Below the pieces are notes generated by a model. It saw only the letters and a program-made list of their open reading frames with translations, was not told the DNA's origin and made no database searches. From contig JAQXIO010000067.1 in NCBI GenBank assembly GCA_029007825.1, positions 3,147-67,146 of the forward strand: DNA of 64,000 nucleotides. Reading direction: 5' to 3'. Source of the stretch: Bacteroidales bacterium (GTDB taxonomy: Bacteria; Bacteroidota; Bacteroidia; Bacteroidales; JAQXIO01). The position numbers and the translations under genes are program-made. Below are positions 1,146-55,616 of this stretch, piece by piece. The first letter of the stretch is position 1; each line of letters begins with the position of its first letter.

Positions 1146-1199
1146 AGTCATTTGACAACCATAACAACCATTTGACTATAATTTTATTGTCAAATGACT
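1146..1199. promoter_or_regulatory. candidate operator set: 13-bp perfect inverted repeat AGTCATTTGACAA / TTGTCAAATGACT plus a third half-site
   Basis: agtcatttgacaa at 1146-1158 and its exact reverse complement ttgtcaaatgact at 1187-1199. A third catttgac copy lies at 1169-1176. The right arm overlaps the repressor ATG (1194). Confidence 0.55.
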
Positions 1200-1928: not shown

Positions 1929-2112
1929 TCCGGACAATCGGCATCCACATCGGTTAAACTTTACTTTTATACTAAAGATCTCTTAATAAAAAGAATAGTT
2001 TTTGTCTTTCTGGTATAAGACAGGAACACCTTGGCACCCGTTATATAAAATTAACACGTAAAGCCAAGACAATTTTCTTGAAATTAAAAGCGAAACCTAA
2101 ATCAAAGAAATT

Positions 2113-5569: not shown

Positions 5570-5603
5570 CACCCTAAAACAAATTACCTAAACAAAGAGT
5601 TAT

Positions 5604-9780: not shown

Positions 9781-10143
9781 AGCGGTAAGTATTAAAGATG
9801 TAACGTTTACAAATATACAAGCCAAAACAACAAATGACAAATTTGATAAGCAAAAAGATGCAAACCCGCATTATATTATGCTAAAAAAAGCCCGTTATTT
9901 GCATAAAATCAAACACATTAACAGCATGTTACATTTCTGGATACTTTTAAACAGAGACCCAATAAAAAAGTATCAAAATTCATAACTAATAAAATAAGAA
10001 AGACAAAAAAAGGAAGAAAAAGCCACCTCTTATACAAAAACCAACCGAGAAAAATGCACAGCCGGAAGAATCAAGGAATAAGCAAACCCTTCCGGAAAAA
10101 ATAAAATACAGAACCCTCACGGATCGTTCCAGAACATCGAAAA

Positions 10144-18322: not shown

Positions 18323-18610
18323 AGACCGGCATCGTATATTCCGCTCCCACTCCCCCGCTTCATAAGCCCGGACCAACAAGAATCCGACCGGAAACCGCAA
18401 ACAACGGAAAAAAACACAGCAACATTATCCCGTATTCAAACAGGCTACTGCAACAACGCCTTCCCCTCGCAGGAGCCGCACCCTTCTCCGGCAGACTCGT
18501 TTCGCCCCTCCGGCAAAAGACATATCACAGTTCCCCTTAGAAGTGCCGCCTACGTACCTTGCGGCAGCAGAAAAACATTCCCCTGCAAAAAAACACTTGA
18601 CGGCAACCGG

Positions 18611-18651
18611 AATAAATAAAGAGAGGATATCCCTTTTCCGGATACCCTCTC
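18611..18651 (-). terminator. rho-independent terminator of the giant T9SS gene pair
   Basis: Stem gagaggatatcc (18621-18632) pairs with ggataccctctc (18640-18651), 1 mismatch, 7-nt loop. Plus-strand aataaataaa (18611-18620) gives a U-rich tract on the minus transcript. It lies 23 nt after the stop. Confidence 0.6.
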
Positions 18652-18673
18652 CTCTCATTCGACTATGCCTGTT

Positions 18674-26203: not shown

Positions 26204-26219
26204 TTTCTGTTCTGCTTTA

Positions 26220-42010: not shown

Positions 42011-42772
42011 ATGTACCGCATCTTCTTACTCCTTACGCTTACGCTTGCACTCCTGACAACAACAGGCTGCAAGAAAGACTCCGTGCTCAGCGAACGGAAA
42101 ACGGAAGAATTGCTGTACGATATGCACCTCGCCGATGCCATTATGGAAAGAGAATTTCAGAAAGGCAGTCTCTCCGACAGCATACGCAACAGTATGTACG
42201 CCTCGGTATTCGAAAAACACGGCGTAACGAAGGCACAGTTCGACACAACAATTTCGTGGTACGGACGCAACCTCGACAAATACATCGGAATATACAAACG
42301 CCTCTCCGCCCGCTTCGCAGAAGAAAGCAACACCTACCAGAAACTGGCGGAACAGCAAACCGGTGAAACCATACAAAACGATACGACCACCATTCTGGAC
42401 GGTGAAAAAAGAGTAATATTCTCCAATTTCGATTTCCCCCTCATCCGGAAATTTAAAATGCCCCTGTCTCCCGATACGACGGCAGACAAACAATATCAGC
42501 TTAAATTCTCCACCTTCGGCATCAACCCGAAAATGAAGTACTTCCCGCGCGTACAGCTCTCCCTGCACTACGCCGACACCACCGACACGAAAAGCCTTAC
42601 ATTGCAGAACGACAGCACATACACACTCGACATTCCAGTATTGAAACAGCATACGCCCACCGGAATATCCGGCTTCTTTTTCGTGCGCCCCTACAGCAAC
42701 TACTTCTACCGCGTGATATTCGACGACATATCGCTCACCGATACCATCGCCGCACAGCAACCCGACCGATGA
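42011..42772 (+). CDS. DUF4296-like lipoprotein
   Basis: Lipobox TTGC. N-terminal KTEELLYDMHLADAI motif. Position directly after lspA, as commonly seen in Bacteroidota. Confidence 0.7.
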   Translation: MYRIFLLLTLTLALLTTTGCKKDSVLSERKTEELLYDMHLADAIMEREFQKGSLSDSIRNSMYASVFEKHGVTKAQFDTTISWYGRNLDKYIGIYKRLSARFAEESNTYQKLAEQQTGETIQNDTTTILDGEKRVIFSNFDFPLIRKFKMPLSPDTTADKQYQLKFSTFGINPKMKYFPRVQLSLHYADTTDTKSLTLQNDSTYTLDIPVLKQHTPTGISGFFFVRPYSNYFYRVIFDDISLTDTIAAQQPDR

Positions 42773-43158
42773 AACGCTTCGCCGCACACCGCATCTGCTT
42801 TTCTCCCGGAGCCTGCTTCGACATCTACTGGATCGGACTTGACGACGACGGCTCCCTCCTCCAACTGGAGCCCCTCGAAAACGAAATAGCCGCAACCGTT
42901 TTCCTCAACGGCTTGATCCTGATGGTTCCCGCAGGGCAATACGCAAGCCCGGAAGAAGCCGAAGAGCAATTCAACCGCTACATAACACGACACCCCCGCC
43001 GGAAACTCACGGAATTTCTGGAAGAAACAGGATTGACCGCCCCACCCCGCATCGGTGGGCACTACTATCCCCTACACCTTGAAAACTTCGATTTCCCTGC
43101 GTCGGAACTCCGCGCAGACAACAGCCGTGGCGACCGCCACGTTAAGCGACTTATCTGA
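42769..43158 (+). CDS. hypothetical protein; last 22 codons lie inside the left 65-bp direct repeat
   Basis: 129-aa ORF with ATGA start/stop overlap with the upstream gene. No motif. Its 3-prime end (FDFPASELRADNSRGDRHVKRL) is encoded by the repeat copy at 43087-43151. Confidence 0.5.
   Translation: MKRFAAHRICFSPGACFDIYWIGLDDDGSLLQLEPLENEIAATVFLNGLILMVPAGQYASPEEAEEQFNRYITRHPRRKLTEFLEETGLTAPPRIGGHYYPLHLENFDFPASELRADNSRGDRHVKRLI
43087..43151 (+). repeat. 65-bp direct repeat, left copy (att-like)
   Basis: ttcgatttccctgcgtcggaactccgcgcagacaacagccgtggcgaccgccacgttaagcgact is identical base for base to 53931-53995. It contains the internal palindrome cgtggcg-ac-cgccacg (43126-43141). Confidence 0.95.
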
Positions 43159-43531
43159 CAACATCCATTCCGGAAACCTGCAAAAACCGCCTCTGCCTTT
43201 CGTTTTCGGGAACACCCATTTCCGCTTAATCGCAAAAAATTCCGTACAAACAAAATCTTATAAATATACCCGTTCCAGGTACCAGCGCCGGAATTTAGCC
43301 CGGTATTTGGAAAAAAGATAAGACTCATCCGGAGCATAAAACAGTTGTCCACTCACCCTTCTCCGCAATCGGTACCCCATTCGCATTTTGCAAAATGGCA
43401 AGAAAAGAAAAACCAGCCACTGCGCCGGAACAGATTCGAAAAATATAGGAGAAACTCGGCAATGAAATACCTTCATTTTTCGGTGTAAGTTTATAAATCC
43501 TACTCACTATCTTTTTTATACGATAGAGATA

Positions 43532-45928
43532 CTATCGTGATCTCTCTTCTTCGTTTCCTATCTGTGCCTTTTTTACATTAACCTCTTTTCCTGCACGAAA
43601 ATTCCAACGGGCAGATATTCCAAAAGCACGTCCGGCAATCGATTGATGAGAAATTACAGTTCGGGTGCTTATCCCCGGCTGTTCCATTTCGGCTCTCATA
43701 GTCCATTTACCATTATCAAATATATTATTAACAACAGCCGATACGGTCAATCTATTTTGCAAGAAACTTTTTCGAAGACCCATATCGAACGAGTTATAAG
43801 CCTTTGTTTTCATATTTCCTTCAAGTCCTCCTGACATATAAGAAAAATTAGCTTCTAAACTCCAATTTTTCATGAAAGTAAATATATTATTAATACGGCC
43901 TTGAAATATGCTTTTATTATATTCATAATCATTTACCACGTTTCTTGCATAGGCATATGTCGCATCAACTCCTAATCGCCACCATTTAAAGGGATTAAAC
44001 GGCATATTGAGAGAAGTATAATATTGTTGGGACTTGCCGATATTTTGACTTTGATAAAGAGTAACCTCCGGATTGTCAATGTCTTGCATCATGACTTGAG
44101 CTACCATTCCTTTACCATCAAAAAATCCTAATGTCAATGAATATTTCTGTCTCAAAATACCCGTCACATTGTAATGATTATAATAAGATGGTTGAAGGTC
44201 GGGATTTCCCACTATATAACTGTAACTGCTGATTTGCTGTCGATAAGGATTAAGATTGCTAAAACTAGGACGATCGATGCCTTGACTAAAACTTGCATTG
44301 ATCATATTTCCTTTTTCTTTATTTAAAATATATTGAAGACTGATAAAACCAAAGAAATCTGTGTAATGAAGTTTTTTAACATCTTCCGGATGAGAATATG
44401 AATAAGGATTAACCAAAGTATTTTCCACTCTTAAACCAGCATTCAAATTAATCTTTCCTAAAGAAGCAGATCCATTAATGTAGGCTCCTAAAACACCTTC
44501 TTTGTATATATAATTATCGTCGAGATCAGGATCAGGAATCATATTGCCATCTTCTAATTTCGAATTGATTAATTCTGTGTTCATATTCGTATATGTATAT
44601 TTTATTCCCGTTTCCGCTCGAAATTTCGAATTAAAGATATGATTATAATCCGCCTTAATAGTATACAGATCAGTTTGTCCGTTCCAATCCATCGTATTCC
44701 CCTTTTCAATCGACTGCAACAGATCAAGTTTCTCAAATGAATAACTATCCGAATACCTATTGTTCCGATCATATAGATAATCAGCAATTACTTTTAAATT
44801 AGACCCCTTTTCATCTATGGTAATATTATAATTTAATGATGCCATATATCTATGATTTTTAATATCCGAATCATAAGTACTGGTTAAATCGGAGATCTCA
44901 TCTGAAACTTTTGTGTATCCCGAAGATGGGCTTTGAGTAGCATTATTATTAATTGAATAATCAAAATTTACGCCAATATTCTGTTTATCGGTAATTTCAT
45001 AAACGCTACCCAAACGCCCTGAATAAGATTTTACTTTTGCAGAACCCTTACTTATATTATGAATTTCTCTTTTATTTCCCGTAAGATAATGGGTTAACTC
45101 CTCCACAGTGGACTTAATCTTTTTATCGTCATAATTAAAGTTTGAATAGAAACTAAGTTTATTGATTCGATAATCAAGATTCACACTCGGACGGAGCAAG
45201 GAAGGGAAAATATTTTTTTGCATATTCATATTCATGCCAACAGAACCTGTAAGCCCGGCATTAACCGAACGTTTCAACTTGATCTTAATTACTCCGCCCA
45301 TTGCATTAGCATCATATTGTGCTCCTGCTGTCGGTATAATTTCAATTGAACTTACTTGTTCTGCATCTATGCTTTCCAAATATACCATCAATTCTTCATG
45401 AGACATTTTCAACTCCCGATCGTTTACATAAATCTGCGATACGTTATTGCCGTTAATAGAAAGTCCTTTTCCCCTTGCATACCAGACTCCCGGCGCTAAG
45501 CCCAACAGTTCTAAAGAAGTTCTGCCGATAGCAATGGGCTTTCCTGCAGTAATAAATGTATAGCTATCAGCGGTACGTCGGATCATATCGGCTGTTATCA
45601 TGACATCATTGAGTTGGTTTACAGATTCTTTTAAAATCAAATCACCGATATTTATTTTTCCTTCTACTTTGATTGGCTTTATTAGTGTCTCGTAACCTAA
45701 AAATGCAACCCGTAAAATATAATTATTTTTAGCAATATTTGCTATCTCGAATTTTCCGTCATTATCAGCAACAGTTCCTGAAACTGTAAGGGAATCAGTA
45801 TCTAACAGACTAACTGTAGCAAATGCTAAAGGATTATTCTGTTGATCTTTTATAGTTCCGTTAATGGATTCTCCTAAAACAGGGAAAGATAAGTAAACTA
45901 AAACGAAAATTAATGTGTGTTTTTTCAT
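43532..45928 (-). CDS. outer-membrane beta-barrel protein with CarboxypepD_reg-like and plug domains (TonB-dependent-receptor-like)
   Basis: 798 aa. Signal peptide. INGTIKDQQNNPLAFATVSLLD...DGKFEI (CarbopepD_reg). Plug-like segment (LELLGLAPGV...GGVIKIKLKR). Alternating beta-strand pattern to the C-terminus. Starts 11 nt after the upstream gene. Confidence 0.85.
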   Translation of the reverse strand: MKKHTLIFVLVYLSFPVLGESINGTIKDQQNNPLAFATVSLLDTDSLTVSGTVADNDGKFEIANIAKNNYILRVAFLGYETLIKPIKVEGKINIGDLILKESVNQLNDVMITADMIRRTADSYTFITAGKPIAIGRTSLELLGLAPGVWYARGKGLSINGNNVSQIYVNDRELKMSHEELMVYLESIDAEQVSSIEIIPTAGAQYDANAMGGVIKIKLKRSVNAGLTGSVGMNMNMQKNIFPSLLRPSVNLDYRINKLSFYSNFNYDDKKIKSTVEELTHYLTGNKREIHNISKGSAKVKSYSGRLGSVYEITDKQNIGVNFDYSINNNATQSPSSGYTKVSDEISDLTSTYDSDIKNHRYMASLNYNITIDEKGSNLKVIADYLYDRNNRYSDSYSFEKLDLLQSIEKGNTMDWNGQTDLYTIKADYNHIFNSKFRAETGIKYTYTNMNTELINSKLEDGNMIPDPDLDDNYIYKEGVLGAYINGSASLGKINLNAGLRVENTLVNPYSYSHPEDVKKLHYTDFFGFISLQYILNKEKGNMINASFSQGIDRPSFSNLNPYRQQISSYSYIVGNPDLQPSYYNHYNVTGILRQKYSLTLGFFDGKGMVAQVMMQDIDNPEVTLYQSQNIGKSQQYYTSLNMPFNPFKWWRLGVDATYAYARNVVNDYEYNKSIFQGRINNIFTFMKNWSLEANFSYMSGGLEGNMKTKAYNSFDMGLRKSFLQNRLTVSAVVNNIFDNGKWTMRAEMEQPGISTRTVISHQSIAGRAFGISARWNFRAGKEVNVKKAQIGNEEERSR

Positions 45929-45939
45929 ATCTTAAAAAA

Positions 45940-48111
45940 TCAATATGGAGTAAAAACGAAAAGATTTGACATATACCATCCAATATATTTAGAAATATAA
46001 TTTTGCACCCCAAAATCTTGAATCTTTAATTCATCTTTATATTGCATTAGCATCTTTTGTTTATCATCCTGTAAAGATTTCAATTGACTTTGTCCGCTTA
46101 AAACCAAATATCTGGTCGCATATAGCTCATAATTTAATTTATTATTCTTGTCAAACTCCACCAATGCCAAATTAAGCCATGCTTTAGGCAAATTTGGCAT
46201 CATCTCTAAGGCTTTGGAAATAAATTTTTCTGCTTCTGATTTTCTATCTAGTAAATATAGGCTCTTCCCGATATTCGAAATGATTATTGGATTTTGTTCA
46301 CGCTCGGCACTATTTATCAAGGACTCAATAAGAATGTCTTTTACATAAGGATCTGCATTATCAATTTCCTTCCAATAACAAGAGTTCAGTACAGACGGAT
46401 TATATTTTACCGCTTTAATTAAATAATCAGTCCATTTATTATTATTTTTATTTAAATATAAAATACGTGACAATGATAAATTATATAGAGCATTTTCTGG
46501 AAATTCTTCTACTAAAGTTTTTAGTCTATTTATAGCAACAATAGTATTTCCTCTCTCATAAATCATATAAGCAATATTGTGGTCAAGCAAAGGACTCCTA
46601 TAATAATTGGTTACGCATCGAAAATATTTAATCGCAATATTTAAATTTACAGTATCGTTCATTTCGTAATACTGTTTCCAATACATATATCCCTTGTTTA
46701 TAAAAGTTGGCATAAAATCGTCACAGTCTTTCAATATTTTTAGCGCACTATCAATATTGCCCCCTTCGGCCAATTTTACAGCTTTATCATTAAGTTTATT
46801 AGAGTTGCTTAAAGAAAGAGAAATCGATAAGATGCCTAGGCAAATAATAAAAGGTATAATTGAAATCCATTTAGTTATGTCTTTATTTATTATAAATGTA
46901 TTCTTTGCGTCAATATTCTGAACTGCCGCTAATAGTGTAAACATAACTAATTTCAGAGACATAGAATTCAACAATACCGGAAAAGACAACTCTCTAATCA
47001 AAATTGTTACGGATATAATTAGAAACAGAGGGAAAATAAGATTTAAATGGATCCGTTTAAGCAGATAAACAAAAATTACAATTAAGAATAATAACCATAG
47101 ACTAAATCCAATTATCCCTTTCTCTATCAATAATTGAGATATTATATGGGGAGCGAATGTTGTGAAACTTGTTTTATCAGATTCGTATCTCTTTGTATTT
47201 ATTATTTGAGAAAATGTACCTGAACCAGCCCCGAAGAATAAATTTTCATTTATTTTTTTGAAAGATGCTTTAGATGACAGAACCCTCCCCTCTATACTTT
47301 TTTGTTGGGAGATAGTTTCTGTAAAATTTAAAGTTTGAAAAACTTCCGAAACAAATGGCCTTATTATTAGCAATAGACATATGGCTACACAACAAGATAA
47401 ACATAGTTTAGTAATCAATTTTGTTTTGCTAAATACAAGAAGCAAAAATAAAGATATCAAAAGAAAAATAAACGCAACATAAATCCCTCTTGAAAAGGAT
47501 GTTATTATTCCATATGTTACAGGAATCAAGCAGAAAATAAGTATTATTCTCAATCTTAAAAGTTTTCTACAATATAAAATTGAAAATAGTATTAATCCTG
47601 CAAATCCTAAAAGATACGAACTCCATATATTTATAGATTGGCCTAATGGTTTATATAAATACCTAAATGGATATAGACTGTCAAATTGGGCAATATTATA
47701 AATTAAATCCTCAAAATAGAAAAATGCGACACAACCTAATAATGCTGCGACTCCTATTATTAAACCATAAGAAAATAACAAATATTCAAATTCAACTTTT
47801 TTGTTAAAACATAATCTCAATACCAAATAATATAGCGTGCAAATAACGCTTATTTTTAAGTGTATGAAATTTGTAATGAAATTTACCGATATAAATTGCA
47901 GTATTATTTCGTATAATAATAAAATTACAATTAGCGTATCAATACAAGTAAGACGTAAAACAGCCGATTTTAACTTAATAAATATTACAAAGGATAATAT
48001 AATTCCGATTGAGAAAAACGGATCATTAATCTTTGAAGTTAATGATAATATAAATAAAATTGCTAATAAAAATAGGCTTACTATCAATTGAGGCTTTATA
48101 GATGAAGTCAT
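45940..48111 (-). CDS. polytopic membrane protein with O-antigen-ligase-like (Wzy_C) core and C-terminal TPR repeats
   Basis: 723 aa. About 10-12 TM segments. Wzy_C-type motifs (SFSRGIYVAF ... R..S.K..F.KI....FFGAGSGTF ... FAPHIISQLLIEKGIIGF). The C-terminal ~300 aa have TPR-like repeats (AEKFISKALEMMPNLPKAWLNLALV). Starts 3 nt after the M50 gene. Confidence 0.8.
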   Translation of the reverse strand: MTSSIKPQLIVSLFLLAILFILSLTSKINDPFFSIGIILSFVIFIKLKSAVLRLTCIDTLIVILLLYEIILQFISVNFITNFIHLKISVICTLYYLVLRLCFNKKVEFEYLLFSYGLIIGVAALLGCVAFFYFEDLIYNIAQFDSLYPFRYLYKPLGQSINIWSSYLLGFAGLILFSILYCRKLLRLRIILIFCLIPVTYGIITSFSRGIYVAFIFLLISLFLLLVFSKTKLITKLCLSCCVAICLLLIIRPFVSEVFQTLNFTETISQQKSIEGRVLSSKASFKKINENLFFGAGSGTFSQIINTKRYESDKTSFTTFAPHIISQLLIEKGIIGFSLWLLFLIVIFVYLLKRIHLNLIFPLFLIISVTILIRELSFPVLLNSMSLKLVMFTLLAAVQNIDAKNTFIINKDITKWISIIPFIICLGILSISLSLSNSNKLNDKAVKLAEGGNIDSALKILKDCDDFMPTFINKGYMYWKQYYEMNDTVNLNIAIKYFRCVTNYYRSPLLDHNIAYMIYERGNTIVAINRLKTLVEEFPENALYNLSLSRILYLNKNNNKWTDYLIKAVKYNPSVLNSCYWKEIDNADPYVKDILIESLINSAEREQNPIIISNIGKSLYLLDRKSEAEKFISKALEMMPNLPKAWLNLALVEFDKNNKLNYELYATRYLVLSGQSQLKSLQDDKQKMLMQYKDELKIQDFGVQNYISKYIGWYMSNLFVFTPY

Positions 48112-48114
48112 ATA

Positions 48115-49335
48115 TTAAAGCGTTTTAGCTGCATCATTTATCTTTAGCAAGTGTTTTTTTACAAGCGGATATAAGGTTTTATATAAAACATATACAGTAA
48201 ACATGAAAAAAATAAGTTGCCCGAAACACCTCTGCATCAACTGTAAATCAGGCATGGATCCAGTAGAAATCATAAATATCAATTCCTTTATATGCCCCGG
48301 AAAGGTCCTGAAGAATTTTATTATAAACACAGGTATGAAATATAAAAAATAAAAACCGAAAATCAAGTTAACTAGTATTGTATATATAATTGCAACCGTT
48401 CTTTGCTTTTTTGAAATAGCTAAAAGGTAGGGTCGCTTATTAATAGGCTTTTTAAAAGATCGATTAAAATAATACTTAAATACTTCAGAAGTTCTTTGCC
48501 TTAAGTTGGGAATACCCAATAAATCTGACATAATCCAATAACCATCAAATTTTAAAAATGGATTAAGAGTAATCGCCATATTAATATTTACCGACAGGAT
48601 ATAATACTTTAATATATTATTTCCGGTTTCAGCATATATCAAAAACATGGGAATCAGTAATATTAGTTGAAAATATATTCCCGCTATATTTACCACCATT
48701 TTTTGTAGTTTTGGTAACTGCCATACTTCAGAAACATCGGTGTAAAAAACAGGAAAATTTATATAAAGCCCAAATCCAATTCCTCCGTGATTAACTCCAA
48801 AATATCTGCATGCGGAGGCATGCCCTAACTCATGAAAAAATGAAGATAATATAAACAATCCCAATAATCCGATAATCATATAAAGATCTATCTGGTTAGT
48901 ATTGAATATTGTTAAATTATTCGTAAAAAACAGTATCTCTAAAACCACTATCGCTACCATAATAAGTAACGATATCCATTTATTAAATAATACCTTAAGA
49001 ATATTGGATAATGTACCTATTGTTTTTTCAGAAAGCAGCTCTATATTAAAAATAAATGGAGAAGATTTTTCCTTAGAAGCAGGCTTCAATATTTTACCCA
49101 AACAATTTTCTATTATAGATTCAATTTCTTCATCATTAAATATCCGCCCTTTTTTTGCATAAAACTCTTTCAACCCGTCTATAGATGATTTTTCTTTCAA
49201 AAGATCTATTAACTCAAAGACTGTTTCGTTAATTTCAAAATTTCTTTCTTTATAACATACTATATAGCGCTGATCGACATTCGATGTTGCCAGCTTTCGT
49301 ATTTCAAGCTCATGAATCAATTTGAGATCTACCAT
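48115..49335 (-). CDS. M50-family (site-2-protease-like) intramembrane zinc metalloprotease with PqqD/RRE-like N-terminal domain
   Basis: 406 aa. HExxH in a TM helix (FFHELGHA). Second M50 signature NxxPxxxxDG (NPFLKFDGYW). N-terminal ~85 soluble aa (YIVCYKERNFEINETVFELIDLLKEKSSIDGLKEFYAKKGRIFNDEEIESIIENCLGKIL) have the layout of PqqD-type peptide-binding domains. Confidence 0.85.
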   Translation of the reverse strand: MVDLKLIHELEIRKLATSNVDQRYIVCYKERNFEINETVFELIDLLKEKSSIDGLKEFYAKKGRIFNDEEIESIIENCLGKILKPASKEKSSPFIFNIELLSEKTIGTLSNILKVLFNKWISLLIMVAIVVLEILFFTNNLTIFNTNQIDLYMIIGLLGLFILSSFFHELGHASACRYFGVNHGGIGFGLYINFPVFYTDVSEVWQLPKLQKMVVNIAGIYFQLILLIPMFLIYAETGNNILKYYILSVNINMAITLNPFLKFDGYWIMSDLLGIPNLRQRTSEVFKYYFNRSFKKPINKRPYLLAISKKQRTVAIIYTILVNLIFGFYFLYFIPVFIIKFFRTFPGHIKELIFMISTGSMPDLQLMQRCFGQLIFFMFTVYVLYKTLYPLVKKHLLKINDAAKTL

Positions 49336-49353
49336 AATTTAGAACAATTGAGA

Positions 49354-49376
49354 GGGGGTATAAATTATATACCCCC
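49354..49376 (-). terminator. intra-operon GC-clamped stem-loop just after precursor gene (possible partial terminator or mRNA-stabilising/processing hairpin)
   Basis: gggggtata (49354-49362) pairs with tataccccc (49368-49376), 5-nt loop, 18 nt downstream of the precursor stop on the minus strand. Only a weak U-tract follows. Confidence 0.5.
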
Positions 49377-49394
49377 AAAAGTTTAGCCTACAAG

Positions 49395-49583
49395 TTATGA
49401 TACCGGAGAACAAACGTTTTGTTCTGAGCTACACTGAACGGCGCAAAAACAAGCGGCACCGTCAATCCCATCTACAGGGCCAAACAGATCCAACAAGCCT
49501 CCCACCGTAAGAATGTCTGTTTCAAGACGTTTCTCAAGTTCCTGAACAAAAAAATCATCATACAACTGCTCATTAAGAGGCAT
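49395..49583 (-). CDS. candidate RiPP precursor peptide (acidic helical leader, GG motif, Cys-rich C-terminal core)
   Basis: 62 aa: MPLNEQLYDDFFVQELEKRLETDILTVGGLLDLFGPVDGIDGAACFCAVQCSSEQNVCSPVS. Cys at 45, 47, 51 and 58. Lies 65 nt after the rSAM/SPASM gene and 59 nt before the M50 gene, on the same strand. Confidence 0.75.
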   Translation of the reverse strand: MPLNEQLYDDFFVQELEKRLETDILTVGGLLDLFGPVDGIDGAACFCAVQCSSEQNVCSPVS

Positions 49584-49648
49584 TAATTCCTCTTTTTTTC
49601 ATTTTTTTTCATAGTGAAAATTTAAAATTAAATTAATAAAAACACAGG

Positions 49649-51052
49649 TTACTGCATAGCCGGCATAACACACTCCTCGTACGCTTTATTAGCAGCATAT
49701 TTAAAGGTATTAGAATAGCCATCACAATAATTGCTGTTTATATCTTTATTTCTTGTAATAGAAAGGTGTAGGCATCCTCCACTACATAGCAGAGCGTATT
49801 TGCACACGGAACAATTTTCTGATCCATTTATATTTCTGGCATGCCATCTACTAAGCTCTGGTGTCCACTGTATTTTATCGGAGTATTTGCCTATTACATT
49901 TTGAGGGTTTCCCACAAGGCTCCAACAGCCATAAATATTTCCATACGGATCAAAAATATAAGAACCGCTTTGGGCTGCACAAAATGTTGAATTTAAATAT
50001 ATCTTCCTTTTTTCTTTAATCGCTTTTGATAATTTATTATATATTCCAAAATCCTGACACCCGTACTTATTACCATTAAATTCTAATTGCTTGTAATTTA
50101 TTCTATTAAATTCTTCTCTATTTAAATAGTTTAAAACAGCGCTTTTATTATTAGCATCGGGAGAATAATCCTTTAACAAGGCCGACTTAAATGCGAATTT
50201 TTCAAATTTACTATATCCAAGTTCGTCGAAATAATTTAAAATTTTTTTAATGTCACTGATGTTATTTTTATCAGTATTGTAACGTATCGCAACAGCTATA
50301 TCTTTTTTTAATGCAATTCCTATATTTTTCACTATCTTATCAAACGATCTTCCCGTTAAATAATGAATACGCCTATTATCATGTTCTTCCTTAAACCCAT
50401 CAATGGTTATCTGCAAAGTATTAATCTTTTCAGGAGAAAGCAGATCTTCATAGTGATCTAAATCATAGCCATTGGTTATAGCCATAAAAGTCATTCCAAA
50501 TTTTTGTGCCCTTGATACTATATATTCTACTATTTCTTTATTTTCTTTAAGTAAAGGCTCTCCCCCATATAAAATACTTTGCCGGCTTCTTAATTCTGCC
50601 CGAGGTTCTATTTGTTCCATTGCATAGAATGCTTTATCAACCAGCTCTTTAGTAAATTTTCTCTTTGTCCATTGATGTCCCTCCCCTGATATCTCGTTTT
50701 CATAACAATATGGGCATCTAAAATTACAATCATAGGAAATTAAAAACATGAAATTTTTAAAAAGGCTTTTATCTTTACGATGCATCAGATTTGCAAGCTT
50801 TTTTACATATTCTCTCTCTTCCCGCAATGTCTTTGTTGTAATATATCCTCTACTAATTAATAATTTCAAAGTATCATCATTTAGGCCATCTGATTGTAAA
50901 TTTATGAAGCTTCCATTTTCCTTTAAATACTTCACTATTTGTTTACTTGCAACATCTATAGCTCCTGTGTAGCCATGAATTAGCATGTATTTTTCCGATG
51001 CTTTTTCTAATTTAATGAAAATAGTATACGAAGATAAACGATAATTAATCAT
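49649..51052 (-). CDS. radical SAM / SPASM-domain peptide maturase
   Basis: 467 aa. CNFRCPYC (Cx3Cx2C at C109/C113/C116) after a ~100-aa N-terminal extension. GGEPLL. Full SPASM Cys pattern: CAAQSGSYIFDPYGNIYGC (with Gx4C), CSVCKYALLCSGGC (Cx2Cx5Cx3C) and a final NYCDGY. Confidence 0.92.
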   Translation of the reverse strand: MINYRLSSYTIFIKLEKASEKYMLIHGYTGAIDVASKQIVKYLKENGSFINLQSDGLNDDTLKLLISRGYITTKTLREEREYVKKLANLMHRKDKSLFKNFMFLISYDCNFRCPYCYENEISGEGHQWTKRKFTKELVDKAFYAMEQIEPRAELRSRQSILYGGEPLLKENKEIVEYIVSRAQKFGMTFMAITNGYDLDHYEDLLSPEKINTLQITIDGFKEEHDNRRIHYLTGRSFDKIVKNIGIALKKDIAVAIRYNTDKNNISDIKKILNYFDELGYSKFEKFAFKSALLKDYSPDANNKSAVLNYLNREEFNRINYKQLEFNGNKYGCQDFGIYNKLSKAIKEKRKIYLNSTFCAAQSGSYIFDPYGNIYGCWSLVGNPQNVIGKYSDKIQWTPELSRWHARNINGSENCSVCKYALLCSGGCLHLSITRNKDINSNYCDGYSNTFKYAANKAYEECVMPAMQ

Positions 51053-51547
51053 AATGCATTAGATTGTTAATTATTTATAATTATAGATAGAAATAATATT
51101 ATTTTACTATAAATATAATATTATCCCCAAAACAAGCAGATTATTATCTAATAATTAGGATTTCCTAAATAAGAAGAAGTCCTGATTTTTCCATAAAATA
51201 AAAATTTAAGGTGTGGCTTATATAGTAACTCAATTACAAATCTATAATTAAACTTTCATTATTTGAAATAGTCAATGCTATAAAATACGTTAATTATATA
51301 AAATTATACTTTTATTATGATATTCATAAATACCGATAGGTATCCGTTCGCTCCGATTATAAATTTCTCCATATATTTTTTTTAACCTAATACTCTATTA
51401 AAATTTTGGATTCCGATAAAATGGAATAACTTTTTCAATTCGAGATTTTAAAAGACGAAGCCTGAATATTACCATAGTCCTACCAACCACAAAACAACAG
51501 AAAAGTAATAGATCGCACTTTTAAACTTTCTCATTATTTTCATACGG

Positions 51548-53380
51548 CTATTCTACTGGAGATCTATAAATATCCGAGAAATAACGAAAAAACAGTTCAT
51601 CCCTGTTTTCGGCAGGATTGAAATGGCCTTCATTCTCGACACGCCGGTAAAGAATACGGTTATTATATTTCTTTGCCTTTTCCACAAATTTGTCCGCCTG
51701 ACTGATAGGAATTTCATTATTACGCGAATGCGATATGAATAAATACGTCTGCGCGGGCAATTTATTTAAACTGTCAATCAAATAATCGGGATAAATCCCG
51801 TTTGAAACTCCAACCCCAGCAGCCAGCGCCGGATTACGCTGGCAGGCACTCAACGCTTTGGTACCACCGGCGCATCCACCCAACAAATAAATACCTCGGT
51901 CGTCGATAGCATAATGCCGTTTCAAATCGCTCAACGCTTCATTCAGATCTGTATCCGCTTCGGCATTGTAAATAAGCTGGGCACGCAAATAAGGAAATAA
52001 CAAAGCAAAACCGTACTCATCGGCAAGACGGTACTCCCAACTAAGGAAATCAATATCCGAAATATACCAGCTAAGAGGCATAATCGGAGGATCGGCAAAA
52101 TAGTAGGGCATATAAATGACCAATGGAACCTTACGGGTGCTATCGGCACATAACTGCGGGGAAATATGGAAAAGATAATATTGTTCCGACGAATCCGACG
52201 GAGATACATACTTTTTTAGAAAAGTTCCCGGTCGGTTGCGCAAAGTCGAACCACTCGAAACAGCCCGGTCTATATCCTGCAATTGAAGCAAAGTCGATAA
52301 TTTATTCCTCGAATTAAATGAAACATCATGCACCCGGTAAGCCGCCGAACGCTGCTCCTTCAAATGATCGTACCGCTGTTGCAGAGAAGAGACATAATCC
52401 CCGGCATCTGCCCTCTCTCCCGATTCGCAATACACCTCTGAAACCAAAGCATCGAAAAACGGATCTATTTCTCCTATAAAACAATACTCTGCCAAAACCG
52501 TATCCGGCAATGATAATTCAGACCGGTACAAACCGTCCGATAATCCTTCGGGAAGCGCTACTTTCCAACTACTATATCTCTCTACAACACCAGCCTCTCC
52601 CGCCGGTAAAGTATTCCGGTCAACCCCGAATTGTTTACAGTCCTGCAAATCATACAATGCAAACCCGACCTTCTCCGAATAGGCGTAAGGCCCCAAATAA
52701 ATCTCCACCGAATCGTCCCTTCCCTCAATAACAGGATCGACAACGAAATCACACCAGTAATCGTTCCGGTAATGACTTCTGGCAACCAGCTCATCCTGTA
52801 CCGAACAATAAAACTCCCAGTGGGAAACACCCTTCTCTACTTCCGTTTGTGAAAGTTTTACAACCACCGTATTATCGCCCTCAGCAAGAGAAGCGACAAT
52901 ATGGTTCTCTACCTGTTTTTTTATATTTCTTTTCCACTGACATGCAAAAATATTCTCCGAATTCAGCCAGACTTCCATCTGCTGCGCAAAGTTAAAACCG
53001 AAAACAACTGTCTTGGCCTGAGAAGAATACACATTAAAAAACAAATACACACACGATGGTTCTTTAACACTTGGAAAAAAATCATTAAAATCAAAATAAT
53101 TCTCCAGATTTGGCGACAAAGTCCGCACCTTAACACCCCGCTTTCTCAAAACATCCAAAGCGGCAAATCCACCTTTATATATTTCCGGATCGAAATTACC
53201 GGATAAATCCGAACAGCTTGCACTATCGATACGGAGCGGAAACGAAGCACAAACCTTATTTATCACTACTTCCGAATTGCCTTCGGAAAAATCGACCGAA
53301 AACCGGGGGGTTTTTGTACATGAACAAATCAGCACACAAAAAACAGGGAAAACTCGAAAGAAAATACATGTGGTTTTCAT
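51548..53380 (-). CDS. lipoprotein with C-terminal alpha/beta-hydrolase-like domain (Cys at nucleophile-elbow position)
   Basis: 610 aa. Lipobox LICSC. C-terminal ~200 aa are esterase/peptidase-like with IYLLGGCAGG where GxSxG is expected, and a late His (ENEGHF). Confidence 0.7.
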   Translation of the reverse strand: MKTTCIFFRVFPVFCVLICSCTKTPRFSVDFSEGNSEVVINKVCASFPLRIDSASCSDLSGNFDPEIYKGGFAALDVLRKRGVKVRTLSPNLENYFDFNDFFPSVKEPSCVYLFFNVYSSQAKTVVFGFNFAQQMEVWLNSENIFACQWKRNIKKQVENHIVASLAEGDNTVVVKLSQTEVEKGVSHWEFYCSVQDELVARSHYRNDYWCDFVVDPVIEGRDDSVEIYLGPYAYSEKVGFALYDLQDCKQFGVDRNTLPAGEAGVVERYSSWKVALPEGLSDGLYRSELSLPDTVLAEYCFIGEIDPFFDALVSEVYCESGERADAGDYVSSLQQRYDHLKEQRSAAYRVHDVSFNSRNKLSTLLQLQDIDRAVSSGSTLRNRPGTFLKKYVSPSDSSEQYYLFHISPQLCADSTRKVPLVIYMPYYFADPPIMPLSWYISDIDFLSWEYRLADEYGFALLFPYLRAQLIYNAEADTDLNEALSDLKRHYAIDDRGIYLLGGCAGGTKALSACQRNPALAAGVGVSNGIYPDYLIDSLNKLPAQTYLFISHSRNNEIPISQADKFVEKAKKYNNRILYRRVENEGHFNPAENRDELFFRYFSDIYRSPVE

Positions 53381-53915
53381 AGCGGTAATTTCATTAATAT
53401 AATAAAGTCAATCCAAGCTTCTCTCCCTTCTTGTCCAAACCGGGAAACGCCTACCACCTACAGAAAATTCTACAAAAAGGCCTTCCCTCAATTCAGAGAC
53501 AGCAACAAAAGACGGAACAAAACACCCTTCATAATAGCAAACCTCAGTATAAATCAAAGGTCATTTACAAACATCGGAAATATATTCGAAAAAATAAGCT
53601 CCAACCTTTAATTTATAAAATTTCCAAATAACCTTTTCCTATATCCTTCTCCGGAACACCGACAAAAGTAAAAAAGAAAAAACCGCCACACCCTATAAAT
53701 AAAGCTATTTCAACATTAGCATAAAGCGCTGCGGACATTATTCGCAAAAAGACCTCTTGCCCCAACCATTATGCAACGTCTGAAAATCGAAAAATCTCGA
53801 ACAAACGGAAGCGATCAATATACTTAAAAGTAAAAGTACAAACTACGTATATATCAATCACAAAAAAACAATTGGCATATCCCGGTAAACATTATCCGCT
53901 ACGAAAATAAAACCT

Positions 53916-54680
53916 CTATTTTTTCGGAAATTCGATTTCCCTGCGTCGGAACTCCGCGCAGACAACAGCCGTGGCGACCGCCACGTTAAGCGACTCTGAC
54001 GTAACACTGTCAGGCGGAAAATTCGGAATATAAAGCCGGTGCGTCAGAAGGGCATCCACCTCCGCACTGATACCGTTCCCCTCGTTCCCCATAACGATCA
54101 TACCCTTTCCGTCCAGTTTTTCACCATACAGGTTATTACCGTCCAGAACGGTTCCGTAAAGAGGCATATCCAACGTTTTCAGAAACGGTACAAGATCAGT
54201 ATAATGCACCCTCACGCGTGCCAGCGCACCCATCGTAGCCTGCACCGTCTTCGGGTTATACACATCCGCGCACTGGTGCGAACAAAACACCTCGCCGATA
54301 CCGAACCAATCCGCCAGACGGATAATCGTACCCATATTGCCCGGATCCTGCACCCCGTCCAACGCCAACGACAATTTCCCTTTCAGCGCCTCCCTGTCCG
54401 GCTCGTAAACCGGTTGGCGGAATACTGCCAGCACATCCTGCGGCGACTTCAGCAGCGAAGCGCTACGGATATCCTGCTCGTCCGCCACCACTAACTCCTC
54501 CGTATGTAAATCGCCCTGCGTAGCCATCCATTGCGGCTTTGCCACCAGCAACTCACACTCGAAATGCCCTAACAGGTCGGCCACTAATTTATTCCCTTCG
54601 GCAAGAAAAACACCGTACTCATCCCGAAACTTCTTTTTCTCTAACGACTTAATATATTTGATTTTATTCTTACTCAGCAT
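53916..54680 (-). CDS. TrmH/SpoU-family RNA 2-prime-O-methyltransferase
   Basis: 254 aa. SpoU motifs DPGNMGTIIRLAD, MGNEGNGIS and SLNVAVATAVV. The last ~21 codons before FPKK-stop lie in the right 65-bp repeat. Confidence 0.9.
   Translation of the reverse strand: MLSKNKIKYIKSLEKKKFRDEYGVFLAEGNKLVADLLGHFECELLVAKPQWMATQGDLHTEELVVADEQDIRSASLLKSPQDVLAVFRQPVYEPDREALKGKLSLALDGVQDPGNMGTIIRLADWFGIGEVFCSHQCADVYNPKTVQATMGALARVRVHYTDLVPFLKTLDMPLYGTVLDGNNLYGEKLDGKGMIVMGNEGNGISAEVDALLTHRLYIPNFPPDSVTSESLNVAVATAVVCAEFRRREIEFPKK
53931..53995 (+). repeat. 65-bp direct repeat, right copy (att-like), inside 3-prime end of TrmH-family gene
   Basis: Identical to 43087-43151. On the minus strand it encodes SLNVAVATAVVCAEFRRREIE. 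Confidence 0.95.
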
Positions 54681-54705
54681 CTGTTTATAATGTTATCAAA
54701 CAAAA

Positions 54706-55146
54706 TTATAAGGTTAGCACTTGGGTAAACTCATTATTTTTTTGAAAGTCATCATCCCATATAAATTTCACTTTAATTGTTTTCGGAAATCCCACTATTA
54801 ATCGAAATATCACTTCAGTCGAATCTTGAGGATTTAACAATTCATAAGGAAATGGGTTTTTAAATATATCTAAACGGTCAGCATTACTTATTAACTCAAA
54901 TCGCACATTTAATGCCTTAGATCGCCCCTTATTATATACTTTTAATGTTCTTGGCCCTTTTCCTACTTTTACAATATTTCCTCTTATCTGAGCCTTTTTT
55001 ATCTCAAGTTCTTCTATTTCGTTCTTTTTAAGTTGATAATCATTTAATTTTCTTTCTTGTTTTTTCAACTTATTATCATGAAATATAAAAGTAAAAATAC
55101 CAAATAATAAAGCAATACATGCCACAATAAGACTAGCTAATTCCAT
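54706..55146 (-). CDS. hypothetical membrane-anchored protein
   Basis: 146 aa. One N-terminal TM helix, a Lys/Glu-rich coiled segment, then a beta-rich C-terminal domain. AT-rich. Starts 3 nt after the upstream ORF. Confidence 0.55.
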   Translation of the reverse strand: MELASLIVACIALLFGIFTFIFHDNKLKKQERKLNDYQLKKNEIEELEIKKAQIRGNIVKVGKGPRTLKVYNKGRSKALNVRFELISNADRLDIFKNPFPYELLNPQDSTEVIFRLIVGFPKTIKVKFIWDDDFQKNNEFTQVLTL

Positions 55147-55149
55147 ATT

Positions 55150-55422
55150 TCACTTAAATCTTATAAATTTATTTCCACTGAATATTTTCCTAAATTTTCT
55201 AGTAATATCTTCTTCAATCTCAGCACTAATCTCCGCTTTAAATGAATCCACTCCTTCCAGAATTGTTCCTTCATTTAATTCAACCAATTCATCATACCCT
55301 CCCGGATATTCCCTATTACAAAGATTACATTTAATATGACTTCTATCCTCATCAAATTCAAAATCTTCACCACCACATGTTATACATCTAAGAATAATAT
55401 TTCTCGTATAATATTTTTTCAT
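55150..55422 (-). CDS. hypothetical zinc-ribbon protein
   Basis: 90 aa with CITCGG ... CNLCNREY (CxxC-x17-CxxC) and an acidic C-terminal half. AT-rich. Confidence 0.55.
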   Translation of the reverse strand: MKKYYTRNIILRCITCGGEDFEFDEDRSHIKCNLCNREYPGGYDELVELNEGTILEGVDSFKAEISAEIEEDITRKFRKIFSGNKFIRFK

Positions 55423-55532
55423 ATTCTAATATCATTTTAATACTAAATTAGACTTAAAAATGCAAAACACAAAACACTTTAGACGAATCATGTTGATTAG
55501 ATTAAAATATTTCTGTAAATCCAAAATTTTGT

Positions 55533-55572
55533 ATCAATAAAAAATTATCCCCTCTGATAAACCAGAGAGGAT
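55533..55572 (-). terminator. weak candidate terminator after TolC-family gene
   Basis: cccctctg (55549-55556) pairs with cagagagg (55563-55570), one mismatch. The plus-strand A-run at about 55538-55545 gives a U-tract on the minus transcript. Confidence 0.35.
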
Positions 55573-55616
55573 AATAACATACTTTTTTATTTACACTTTT
55601 AAAGTCTGAATATTTT

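Follow-up and report, generated by a model that had tools for sequence, protein, structure and literature searches.

Gene content and direct repeats of the island

The locus is an AT-rich island bracketed by two direct repeats and lies within a 64-kb window, i.e., the whole stretch of DNA that was analyzed (Table 1). Base-by-base comparison revealed that the two repeat copies are identical at 65 of 65 positions. They are the sole matches to each other in the window, even with three mismatches permitted; there were no such pairs in 100 shuffles, and none is expected by chance. A repeat search gave a slightly longer match of 68 nt with 99% identity, and beyond 65 to 68 bp the similarity of the flanks was at chance level in a global alignment against shuffles. 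The perfect repeats and their rapid decay, as given in the original prediction, were thus reproduced.

Table 1. Features at the island locus, in order of position
Feature	Coordinates	Strand	Basis
Conserved gene (129 aa), converges on trmH	42769..43158	+	38-46% aa identity to positional counterparts
Displaced ancestral trmH 3' end, pseudo-fragment	43072..43151	-	Translation ends ...RREIEVFKV*; stop 43072-43074
Left direct-repeat copy, attL-like	43087..43151	none	GC 61.5%
Distal non-coding island end (380 bp, 41% GC)	43152..43531	none	Sequence
Outer-membrane beta-barrel protein (798 aa), CarboxypepD_reg N-terminal domain	43532..45928	-	Pfam OMP_b-brl_3, E = 1.3e-87
Polytopic Wzy_C (O-antigen-ligase-like) and TPR protein (723 aa)	45940..48111	-	Pfam Wzy_C, E = 4.2e-13
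Intramembrane HExxH metalloprotease (406 aa), motif HELGH	48115..49335	-	NCBIfam daptide_HExxH, YydH/LiaK
Predicted RiPP precursor (62 aa)	49395..49583	-	Homology to small ORF after maturase gene
Radical-SAM/SPASM peptide maturase (467 aa), CNFRCPYC cluster motif	49649..51052	-	Pfam Radical_SAM, E = 4.9e-18
Intergenic region 5' of maturase gene, very AT-rich (24-31% GC)	51053..51547	none	Base composition
Predicted lipoprotein (610 aa), signal peptide with ...LICSC	51548..53380	-	Sequence
Proximal non-coding island end (35% GC)	53381..53930	none	Sequence
Right direct-repeat copy, attR-like	53931..53995	none	Within working trmH
SpoU/TrmH-family RNA 2'-O-methyltransferase (254 aa), target gene	53916..54680	-	Pfam SpoU_methylase (E = 5.8e-31) and MRM3-like_sub_bind

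The right copy had been described as the last ~21 codons of the methyltransferase gene. It does encode SLNVAVATAVVCAEFRRREIE of this protein, but four further codons (FPKK) and the TAG stop lie outside the repeat and occupy the last 15 nt of the proximal non-coding end (53916-53930). At the opposite side, the last ~22 codons of the 129-aa gene are the antisense of the left copy, and the distal non-coding end provides the new stop of this gene (T ATC TGA). The distal end also contains a terminator-like hairpin on the minus strand (43413-43428), and it had no match elsewhere in the window or in any of the loci fetched.

Since the GC content of the island is 0.334, compared to 0.495 in the rest of the window, and the GC3 of its core is 0.24 to 0.28, compared to 0.57 to 0.66 in host genes, the island is, judged by its composition, foreign and horizontally acquired. 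The proposed compositional chimerism holds for the AT-rich core, whereas the 610-aa lipoprotein gene, with a GC3 of 0.42, is intermediate rather than host-like. The repeat itself (61.5% GC) contrasts with the surrounding island (33%).

In agreement with the original prediction, no ORF between the repeats matched integrase, excisionase, or transposase families in Pfam, NCBIfam, or PADLOC. There was no recombinase among the window ORFs of at least 120 aa, and a tblastn search with a Bacteroidales integrase returned no match. Neither the island nor the 64-kb window contains an integrase, excisionase, or relaxase, and no terminal inverted repeats were found at the island. The observation of a repeat-bracketed island without a recombinase is thus confirmed. 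A palindrome in the repeat (cgtggcg-ac-cgccacg) had been considered a possible core-type site. It is no evidence for such a site because four of its six pairs are dictated by the codons of V-A-V-A-T and, across 69 trmH genes, its two wobble pairs are complementary at frequencies close to chance (0.43 observed versus 0.35 expected, and 0.14 versus 0.21); the palindrome is a by-product of the codons.

Predicted RiPP cargo

Judging from its genes, the cargo is an uncharacterized radical-SAM RiPP biosynthetic gene cluster. The SPASM domain of the maturase scored over its cut-off (TIGR04085), whereas the best equivalogs (CefB, TIGR04463, FlmE/OhkG, and PapB) all remained far under theirs; 959 homologs were retrieved at E <= 1e-10, the nearest with 52% identity. 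The precursor has a conserved leader, ...LYDDFFVQELEKRLETD.L.VGGLLDL, and a Cys-rich core, AACFCAVQCSSEQNVCSPVS. It is 65% identical, with 27 invariant columns, to the small ORF located directly 3' of the maturase gene in two related clusters (L081 and L082). The HExxH protease, a probable leader peptidase, matched daptide_HExxH (E = 4.3e-28) and YydH/LiaK (E = 1.5e-16), both under the curated NCBIfam cut-offs, and shares 36 to 54% identity with the syntenic gene of relatives. The Wzy_C/TPR protein is a conserved cluster member and is 30 to 34% identical to its syntenic counterparts in L081, L082, L093, L095, and L097. The barrel protein, which has a weak Plug match, may be an export or uptake/immunity component of the cluster; OMP_b-brl_3-type proteins are also encoded inside the related clusters L097 and L254. 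The intergenic region 5' of the maturase gene presumably contains its promoter. For the 610-aa lipoprotein, there was no Pfam match, no match in related clusters, and only four homologs among 5.8 billion proteins, of which the two looked up are both on 33%-GC contigs; this protein is accessory and outside the conserved cluster.

The order of the genes for the maturase, precursor, HExxH protease, and Wzy_C/TPR protein is kept in ~20 Bacteroidota loci, most of which are AT-rich relative to their flanks. Based on family resemblance, the precursor would be cross-linked at its Cys-rich core by the maturase and freed of its leader by the HExxH membrane protease, and the Wzy_C/TPR protein together with the outer-membrane barrel would serve export, immunity, or uptake. 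The island shares with known rSAM/SPASM RiPP pathways (CefB Cys-every-fifth, TIGR04463, FlmE/OhkG, PapB, and SCIFF ranthipeptide) a CxxxCxxC rSAM enzyme with a SPASM domain and, next to it, a short precursor that combines a conserved leader with a Cys-rich core; it also has a membrane HExxH protease, as found in daptide and YydH/LiaK systems. In contrast, its scores are well under the cut-offs of the named equivalogs (128 versus 600 bits for CefB and 98 versus 300 for daptide HExxH), and the Wzy_C/TPR protein and the OMP_b-brl_3 barrel are additions to the known pathways. Some cluster relatives have MacB/OEP/MFP exporter genes, which the copy in the window lacks.

The empty site and a second island in Segatella copri

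The gene order dksA-lspA-DUF4296-trmH was found in 9 of 80 species-level genomes. An empty site is present in L086, L089, and L090 (TrmH 74% and 69% identical), where trmH converges on a 128-aa gene with an 84-bp overlap (measured in L086 and L089); DUF4296, lspA, and dksA come next, which is also the arrangement in the window. The comparison with relatives suggested in the original prediction thus yielded ORF 42769 convergent with trmH and a single repeat copy. The counterparts of the 129-aa gene at this position encode 128 to 132 aa (L086, L087, L089, and L090), and TrmH has the same length as in the 74%-identical relatives. Removal of the island and one repeat copy in silico restored the 84-bp overlap, a 128-aa instead of a 129-aa product that ends in HVKRL* as in relatives, and a TrmH tail (RREIEVFKV*) alignable with those of relatives. 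This tail, now stranded at the left copy, runs unbroken into the native left flank and has the length and final V of the tails of relatives (RREVQSAQV* and RREVQPVQV*). These comparisons show that the left copy marks the ancestral trmH end and that the last four codons of the working gene are supplied by the island. Because its nearest relatives (TrmH 69 to 74% identical) have an empty site, the interval 43152-53930 is shown to be a real insertion. The repeat lies wholly inside the 84-bp overlap, and the two genes end 4 nt and 15 nt from the joins. The 65-mer is a lineage-specific allele, with 65/65 matches to its own lineage and 47 to 49 of 65 in the nearest relatives. Among the trmH loci of 80 other species, the gene end was in no case present twice within 10 kb, and there was no integrase-bearing element at the trmH 3' end.

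A second island of this cluster family, 11.6 kb long and without a recombinase domain, is located 3' of mutS in S. copri (L097/L173). On either side of it is a copy of a 44-bp stretch from the mutS 3' end (41/44 identical), and all three differences are synonymous third positions. The polarity is the same at both loci, namely, target gene, repeat, cluster, and repeat. L174 and L175 are mutS empty sites, in which the single copy matches the distal repeat (98 and 95%, respectively) and continues directly into the right flank of L097 (99 and 97%). In the proximal mutS copy, differences from the empty-site allele cluster in the final 19 nt, over a background of 2 to 3%, which places the crossover within the preceding 25 to 32 identical bases; this position would be expected from short element-borne homology rather than from a long chromosomal anchor. 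The island-borne part of the repeat resembles the natural mutS allele GGAAGATAA of other S. copri clades (L178, L179, L184, and L218). The S. copri and window islands have different target genes and no common arm or core motif. Most of the well-delimited islands of this family have no flanking repeat. The RiPP cargo, the 84-bp gene overlap as a target, and the second island of the same family had been missed in the original prediction.

Route of insertion

We consider the chances to be about even that the island arose by Campbell-type insertion of a circle carrying the short 3' end of its target, with the integrase lost or acting in trans. The incoming circle would have contained at least 65 bp identical to the overlap of trmH and the 128-aa gene, and one reciprocal crossover in this segment would have left the island between two copies. 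The island side would then complete trmH with four codons and a stop and extend the 128-aa gene by one codon and a new stop, so that both host genes stay intact, and the old trmH end would be stranded 10.8 kb away. The likeliest catalyst would be a site-specific (tyrosine-type) integrase, not encoded by the island, that was lost after integration or is supplied by another genomic element. As for the predicted attL/attR signature of tyrosine-recombinase integration, the geometry agrees with an element exchanging the 3' end of its target gene for its own; a tyrosine recombinase may have acted here, and the island may be either immobilized or mobilized in trans, as proposed.

Since an integrase is absent, att sites are kept, and integration and transfer genes are gone, the island would be CIME-like. 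CIMEs (cis-mobilizable elements) have lost integration and transfer genes and retain attL and attR (PMC5704250). Like those of streptococcal ICESt1/ICESt3-type islands, the island has att-like direct repeats that include a protein-gene 3' end and carries only cargo, with no integrase, relaxase, or conjugation genes. It differs in that no cognate ICE/IME was seen at its site, in its occurrence in Bacteroidota, in its target, which is an overlap of two genes, and in its repeat, which at 65 bp is longer than the 27 bp at the fda site. Prophage e14 and phage 21 integrate inside the icd coding region of Escherichia coli and bring a substitute 3' end. The island is likewise inserted upstream of a stop codon, supplies a replacement end, and has displaced the original one as a pseudo-fragment, and the synonymous-only differences between the icd copies are paralleled in S. 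copri. However, e14 and phage 21 encode their own integrase beside the att site, which neither island does.

Several findings weigh against an integrase. The enzyme is one that we infer entirely, as neither the island nor the window encodes an integrase, excisionase, or relaxase; no cognate integrating element was found at the trmH 3' end in the 80 other species; and flanking repeats are missing from most well-delimited islands of the family. Because the two islands share no motif and have different targets, two unrelated integrases and two independent losses would be needed. A foreign attP would explain the lineage-specific allele and GC content of the repeat no better than a duplication of host DNA or a previous stay of the island in this lineage. 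A rather unlikely but serious alternative is RecA-dependent Campbell cycling, in which a circle excised by homologous recombination between the repeats gets into another cell, by whatever route, and re-enters there by one homologous crossover of its repeat copy with the 3' end of the resident gene. It agrees with the lack of a recombinase in both islands, the window allele, the resemblance of the island-borne L097 repeat to a natural mutS allele with only synonymous differences, and the different targets without a common motif, as would follow if the homology could be provided by any conserved gene end. Against this, homologies of 25 to 65 bp come close to the minimum that a RecA-mediated crossover requires, no transfer function is evident, and cycling accounts for the spread of the island but not for the first duplication at each gene.

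Clearly improbable is an illegitimate insertion that duplicated its target, either by two staggered joins 65 bp apart or by one homology-anchored end, in trmH, and one illegitimate join upstream of the homology end; only insertions sparing both overlapping genes would then have survived selection. The sharply bounded, identical, and host-like repeat, its position within the overlap with joins close to both gene ends, as selection for intact genes would demand, and the lack of a recombinase and of inverted repeats are consistent with this scenario. A simple target duplication, however, is excluded for the L097 island, whose two repeat copies represent different alleles, and a long mutS anchor would seldom place the crossover in the last ~50 nt, where it falls. 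We also know of no bacterial insertion mechanism with target duplications of 44 to 65 bp. The anchored variant recalls homology-facilitated illegitimate recombination and the displacement arrays of Rhs, CDI, and T6SS effector-immunity loci (PMC5361080). In such arrays, an incoming module with upstream homology shifts the old 3' end downstream, and a partial duplicate remains. There, it is a segment of the polymorphic toxin gene that is duplicated and long anchors are involved, whereas the island has as its handle a short stretch of a housekeeping gene unrelated to it.

That the assembler ran the chromosome path through a separate circle with one 65-mer is highly unlikely. The proteins of the window are on record from one contig of 81,985 bp, and the repeat exceeds the largest k-mer of some metagenome assemblers, but a circle with the trmH allele of its own lineage would still be an excised integrating element, with little change to the biology, and the analogous S. 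copri island, with only 25 identical bases in a row, is unambiguously integrated. Practically negligible is the reading that the repeat belongs to a larger segmental duplication with no link to an insertion, which the original prediction anticipated as a refutation, or that the 10.8 kb are ancestral and were lost in relatives. No point in its support was found, and it is contradicted by the abrupt end of identity at 65 to 68 bp, the foreign composition, the uninterrupted overlap in several lineages, and the lack of a nearby trmH in all 26 cluster-family loci other than the window.

The insertion site and its junctions

As had been claimed, the direct repeats that bracket the island are identical at 65 of 65 positions. 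They were the sole matches with 3 or fewer mismatches in the window, none was obtained in 100 shuffles, and a repeat search of the window extended the pair to 68 nt with one mismatch. The claim that similarity decays rapidly outside the repeat was equally supported: blastn did not extend the match, and global alignments of the flanks were no better than those of shuffled sequences, bar one of the 10 window lengths tested. The boundaries of the repeat are thus sharp. Reading the island-side sequence in the frames of trmH and of its convergent neighbour, a 128-aa gene, revealed no convincing protein similarity.

On the minus strand, the repeat reads SLNVAVATAVVCAEFRRREIE, which corresponds to the conserved third motif and the C-terminal helix of the SpoU/TrmH-family methyltransferase (SpoU_methylase, E = 5.8e-31). 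The right copy had been described as the 3' end of this gene; it does encode the C-terminal helix, but the end itself lies beyond it, since the working trmH uses the right copy and then takes its last four codons (FPKK) and a TAG stop from the island. The left copy directly adjoins the ancestral tail and stop of trmH and therefore represents the displaced original 3' end. The 128-aa gene reads through the left copy and ends in island sequence (CTT ATC TGA), gaining one residue. The repeat occupies bases 16 to 80 of the 84-base overlap between the two genes, so that both are essentially intact after the insertion.

The original prediction also considered a palindrome in the repeat, CGTGGCG-AC-CGCCACG, as a core-type site. 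We rejected this candidate as a coding by-product, since 4 of its 6 central pairs are fixed by the V-A-V-A-T codons and its wobble pairs are close to base-frequency expectation: in 69 trmH genes, the two wobble-wobble pairs were complementary in 43% and 14% of cases, compared with an expectation of 35% and 21%.

The nearest TrmH proteins are 74 to 75% and 69% identical to that of the window. In three loci of these relatives (L086, L089, and L090), the 128-aa gene follows trmH on the opposite strand with a 3' overlap of exactly 84 bp, and DUF4296, lspA, and dksA come next, which are the genes to the left of the island in the window; a fourth locus (L087) has the same genes without the overlap. 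Of 80 species-level genomes, 9, belonging to several families of Bacteroidales, have the dksA-lspA-DUF4296-trmH arrangement. Sharing 38 to 46% identity with the 128- to 132-aa proteins of the relatives, the convergent ORF of the window is a real gene. Removal of positions 43152-53995 from the window rebuilt the 84-bp overlap, a 128-aa product with the terminal residues HVKRL, as in L086 and L089, and a TrmH tail (RREIEVFKV) that shares its length and last residue with the tails of the relatives (RREVQSAQV and RREVQPVQV), a stop following in each case. The rebuilt empty site reads ...CACCTTGAAAAC + 65-mer + CTGACGTAACACTG..., and the predicted circle junction ...TTTTTTCGGAAA + 65-mer + TATCTGACAACATCC....

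The empty site that had been predicted therefore exists in L086, L089, and L090, and the reconstructed window site agrees with it. The attL/attR-like geometry is likewise confirmed, with the repeats at both boundaries and an uninterrupted attB in the relatives; a segmental duplication unrelated to insertion was excluded. An exact 38-mer of the repeat had no match in genome and metagenome contig collections, and exact look-ups of the DUF4296, TrmH, and maturase proteins of the window returned no record. As these searches yielded no strain-level relatives, the empty sites were taken from relatives at 69 to 75% protein identity.

Several features of the surroundings deserve mention. A second very AT-rich patch between trmH and tolC, so that foreign DNA lies on both sides of trmH, contains two small ORFs, encoding a CxxC zinc-ribbon protein of 90 aa (ECs_2282 family, scoring slightly under the cut-off) and a protein of 146 aa that has a membrane helix at its N-terminus. 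After tolC there is a strong terminator-like hairpin. Two giant ORFs (2509 and 3275 aa) with Listeria-Bacteroides repeats, Laminin_G_3 domains, and a Por_Secre_tail (T9SS) signal are located between IleRS/B3_4 and dksA, neighbours that are adjacent in L087 and L089. Farther to the left are two adjacent Peptidase_S24 (LexA-like) genes, the first of which also has an HTH domain.

Features of the island and its surroundings, with window positions and base composition
Feature	Position	Strand	Order in transcription	GC	GC3
Island	43152-53930			0.334	
Rest of window				0.495	
65-bp repeat, left copy	43087-43151			0.615	
65-bp repeat, right copy	53931-53995			0.615	
128-aa gene	42769-43158	+			
Ancestral trmH tail and stop	43072-43086	-			
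trmH	53916-54680	-			
Island-borne end of trmH	53916-53930	-			
610-aa predicted lipoprotein	51548-53380	-	First		0.42
Radical-SAM/SPASM maturase	49649-51052	-	Second		
62-aa ORF, Cys-rich C-terminus (precursor)	49395-49583	-	Third		
HExxH intramembrane metalloprotease	48115-49335	-	Fourth		
Wzy_C + TPR membrane protein	45940-48111	-	Fifth		
OMP_b-brl_3 outer-membrane barrel	43532-45928	-	Sixth		
Four core cluster genes					0.24-0.28
Host genes					0.57-0.66
AT-rich patch	54681-55616				
Two small ORFs of the patch					0.17-0.20
Terminator-like hairpin	55544-55575				
Two giant ORFs	18674-36047	-			
Two Peptidase_S24 genes	1194-2571				

The cargo and its family in Bacteroidota

The island contains six genes, all in the direction of trmH. 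A chimeric composition had been proposed for it; the island is indeed AT-rich, but the GC3 of the 610-aa gene is not host-like. The maturase matched Radical_SAM (E = 4.9e-18) and TIGR04085 (SPASM; 53 bits versus a cut-off of 27), and the cysteines of its CxxxCxxC motif (C109, C113, and C116) were invariant in 21 homologs. It produced many matches to named maturase families of ribosomally made, post-translationally modified peptides (RiPPs), among them CefB, PapB, and SCIFF, all far below the curated cut-offs; the best was CefB (128 bits versus 600), and the generic SPASM domain was the only model above its cut-off. The 62-aa ORF shares 65% identity with syntenic small ORFs in two other loci, L081 and L082, and their alignment revealed a leader with the conserved sequence LYDxFFVQELEERLETDPLxVGGLLDL, after which comes a Cys-containing core. 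By domain content, the cargo classifies as a radical-SAM/SPASM RiPP cluster under the generic definition, outside every named equivalog family. No relevant similarity to plasmid DNA and no relevant Rfam match were found; scanning for sigma-70 promoters gives no useful information in Bacteroidota. Of the four known homologs of the 610-aa lipoprotein, two (47 to 48% identity) are on 33%-GC contigs (L091 and L092) from ENA samples ERZ27245258 and ERZ27245261, the same two samples that hold the nearest trmH-locus relatives.

A single-protein locus search for close maturase relatives returned none, and the relatives were obtained by an alignment-based search. The maturase has 959 homologs at E <= 1e-10, the nearest with 52% identity; among the named sources are Butyricimonas virosa, Paraprevotella clara, Bacteroides pyogenes, B. 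acidifaciens, and Rikenella microfusus. Many gut Bacteroidota have the cluster family, Phocaeicola coprocola and Bacteroides species among them, and the genes for the maturase, small ORF, HExxH protease, and Wzy_C/TPR protein keep this order across the loci examined. Some family loci also encode the OMP_b-brl_3 barrel (L097 and L254), and others MacB-type ABC, OEP, and MFP export genes (L081 and L082). AT content is clearly higher in the cluster than in its flanks in several hosts. The single relative from IMG/VR (L253) does not have the remaining cluster genes. No flanking repeats above chance were detected at eight family islands (L081, L082, L095, L099, L100, L101, L254, and L258), and among 26 family loci trmH or mutS adjoins the cluster only in the window and in Segatella copri. 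We found no account of this cluster architecture in the literature.

Two further duplications were noted in this set. In L081, an Orn/Arg decarboxylase gene has a second copy of its 3' end only 140 nt downstream (3213-3292 and 3353-3433; 81 nt, 90% identical), a few kb from the family RiPP cluster, which may be an island scar or a small tandem duplication. In L096 (Balneola), a 99-nt perfect repeat (1-99 and 7413-7511) links the contig end to an internal position beyond the RiPP cluster and is probably an assembly break at a repeat.

A second island at mutS of Segatella copri

In the S. copri locus (L097/L173), mutS, with all five MutS domains, ends at position 5535 and is followed by an 11.6-kb island of about 35% GC. 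This island encodes a TPR protein, two unknown proteins, the maturase, the precursor, the barrel, the HExxH protease, and the Wzy_C/TPR protein, and no recombinase domain was detected in it. The final 44 nt of mutS occur again directly after the Wzy_C stop codon. The two copies are identical at 41 of 44 positions, and all three differences are synonymous, at third codon positions. Its empty-site relatives, L174 and L175, contain one copy, which matches the distal repeat at 98% and 95%, respectively, and runs on into the L097 right flank at 99% and 97%. Among S. copri sequences, JAXYNY010000002.1 is an example with the island and JAJWLX010000006.1 one without it. As in the window, the distal copy is ancestral and the gene-completing copy partly island-borne; the variant bases of the latter look like mutS alleles that occur naturally in other S. 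copri clades. L097 and L174 differ by about 2 to 3% across mutS and by about 1.5% in the right flank, whereas the terminal 19 nt of the proximal copy, preceded by 32 identical bases, contain 3 to 4 differences, which places the crossover within that short identical stretch. The polarity is the same in both islands, namely, target gene, repeat, cluster, repeat, and in both the gene end has been swapped for element-borne sequence and the old end stranded distally.

A palindrome-containing element, AAGTTACCCTAAGGTAACTT...CTTTGGGTAACTT, recurs 3' of mutS in S. copri (L097, L174, L175, L176, and L177). In L097 it is found at 5589-5630 and 19214-19255, and the island has a diverged copy at its proximal end. 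A smaller, separate rSAM/SPASM gene (17808-18884) is also located in the right flank of this island.

Recombinase searches and possible routes of entry

The absence of an integrase, excisionase, or transposase, as noted in the original prediction, was upheld: Pfam, NCBIfam, and PADLOC detected no recombinase, excisionase, transposase, or relaxase family among the island ORFs, and none of these ORFs matched Phage_integrase or resolvase. All window ORFs of at least 120 aa were scanned and none encodes a recombinase. The possibility of an overlooked integrase pseudogene was checked by tblastn with a Bacteroidales integrase, which gave noise only and no integrase remnants. The window has no tRNA gene, and the island ORFs include no transfer functions (relaxase/oriT, conjugation, or virion genes). 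At the island ends, inverted repeats did not exceed chance, the words in common were A-rich 9- to 10-mers barely above chance, and there was no match to the rest of the window or to any fetched locus.

Compared with known systems, the island shares att repeats and an empty site with self-sufficient integrative elements (ICE, IME, or prophage) but fails as one, lacking both an integrase and transfer genes. The textbook parallel for att-type junctions combined with a replacement 3' end is provided by e14 and phage 21 in icd, which the island resembles in both respects. Unlike a transposon or IS, it has neither a transposase nor terminal inverted repeats, and its duplication is 65 bp rather than short. 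Cis-mobilizable elements (CIMEs) are defined by the retention of att sites and the absence of integration and transfer genes (PMC5704250). This description applies to the island, which has kept attL and attR; however, the companion that would define a CIME, a functional element on the same att site, was not found in 80 trmH loci of other species.

The incoming molecule would have been a circle carrying a short copy of the target's 3' end, within which it would have recombined in Campbell fashion. We favour such a circle with a short handle because the S. copri crossover lies inside a homology of just 44 nt and because both islands have the same polarity. There is roughly an even chance that the catalyst was the conventional one, a site-specific integrase, lost or acting in trans, which would make the islands CIME-like. 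Against it, neither island holds an integrase, and no arm or att motif is common to the two cases. Furthermore, other species show no integrating element at the 3' end of trmH or mutS: in the 80 trmH loci, the 3' end of trmH was not repeated within 10 kb, and tblastn searches with the L089 integrase as single query gave no homolog of it downstream of trmH. Finally, the 65-mer of the window is GC-rich and carries the own-lineage allele at 65 of 65 positions, compared with 47 to 49 of 65 in the nearest relatives.

These four points keep two alternatives alive, namely, RecA-dependent cycling on short homology, which we consider rather unlikely, and an illegitimate insertion in which the target was duplicated, followed by selection in favour of intact genes, which seems improbable. 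It is very improbable that the chromosome path runs through a free circle because of an assembly error, and the biology would be little changed even if so. It is also conceivable, though unlikely, that islands of this Bacteroidota RiPP cluster family travel without their own recombinase on a portable housekeeping 3'-end handle, or that one of the conserved cluster proteins has an unrecognised recombination activity. In the handle variant, the island would carry a short conserved-gene 3' end (trmH here, mutS in S. copri), enter by crossover in it, and replace the gene end with its own. Either variant would mean that this kind of mobility is a strategy in its own right that has recurred, rather than the outcome of two accidental losses of an integrase.

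The finding has proved real, tells more than the original prediction did, and is of a generally known kind. New are the target, an overlap of two convergent genes that were both repaired; the cargo, an uncharacterised radical-SAM RiPP family, itself of interest, that is present in many gut Bacteroidota; and the same integrase-less architecture at a different housekeeping gene in S. copri. The exact empty site makes this a clean, reconstructable entry of a biosynthetic gene cluster, in which donor and host sequence can be separated at each junction. It also illustrates how insertion between overlapping convergent genes is tolerated, the overlap being duplicated and the element completing both genes. 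With S. copri being a cultivable human-gut bacterium, the movement of integrase-less Bacteroidota islands becomes directly testable, the candidates being a trans-acting integrase, RecA on short homology, or something new.

Two integrases near the target genes in other species were considered and set aside. The one 3' of mutS in L237 (Carboxylicivirga) is part of a tRNA-Gly/tRNA-Leu duplication: a 401-aa integrase lies alone between two copies of the tRNA pair (12753-14799), forming a minimal integrase-only unit with duplicated tRNA genes on either side, just 3' of mutS. The other, in L089 (8648-9838) and L090 (3559-4749), the relatives with 69% TrmH identity, is upstream of trmH and has no equivalent in the window. 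It is a 396-aa tyrosine integrase (Phage_int_SAM_5 and Phage_integrase) about 160 bp from trmH, and in L089 it is enclosed, together with the neighbouring OEP gene, by a 20-nt direct repeat (18 of 20 positions; 6964-6983 and 9937-9956).
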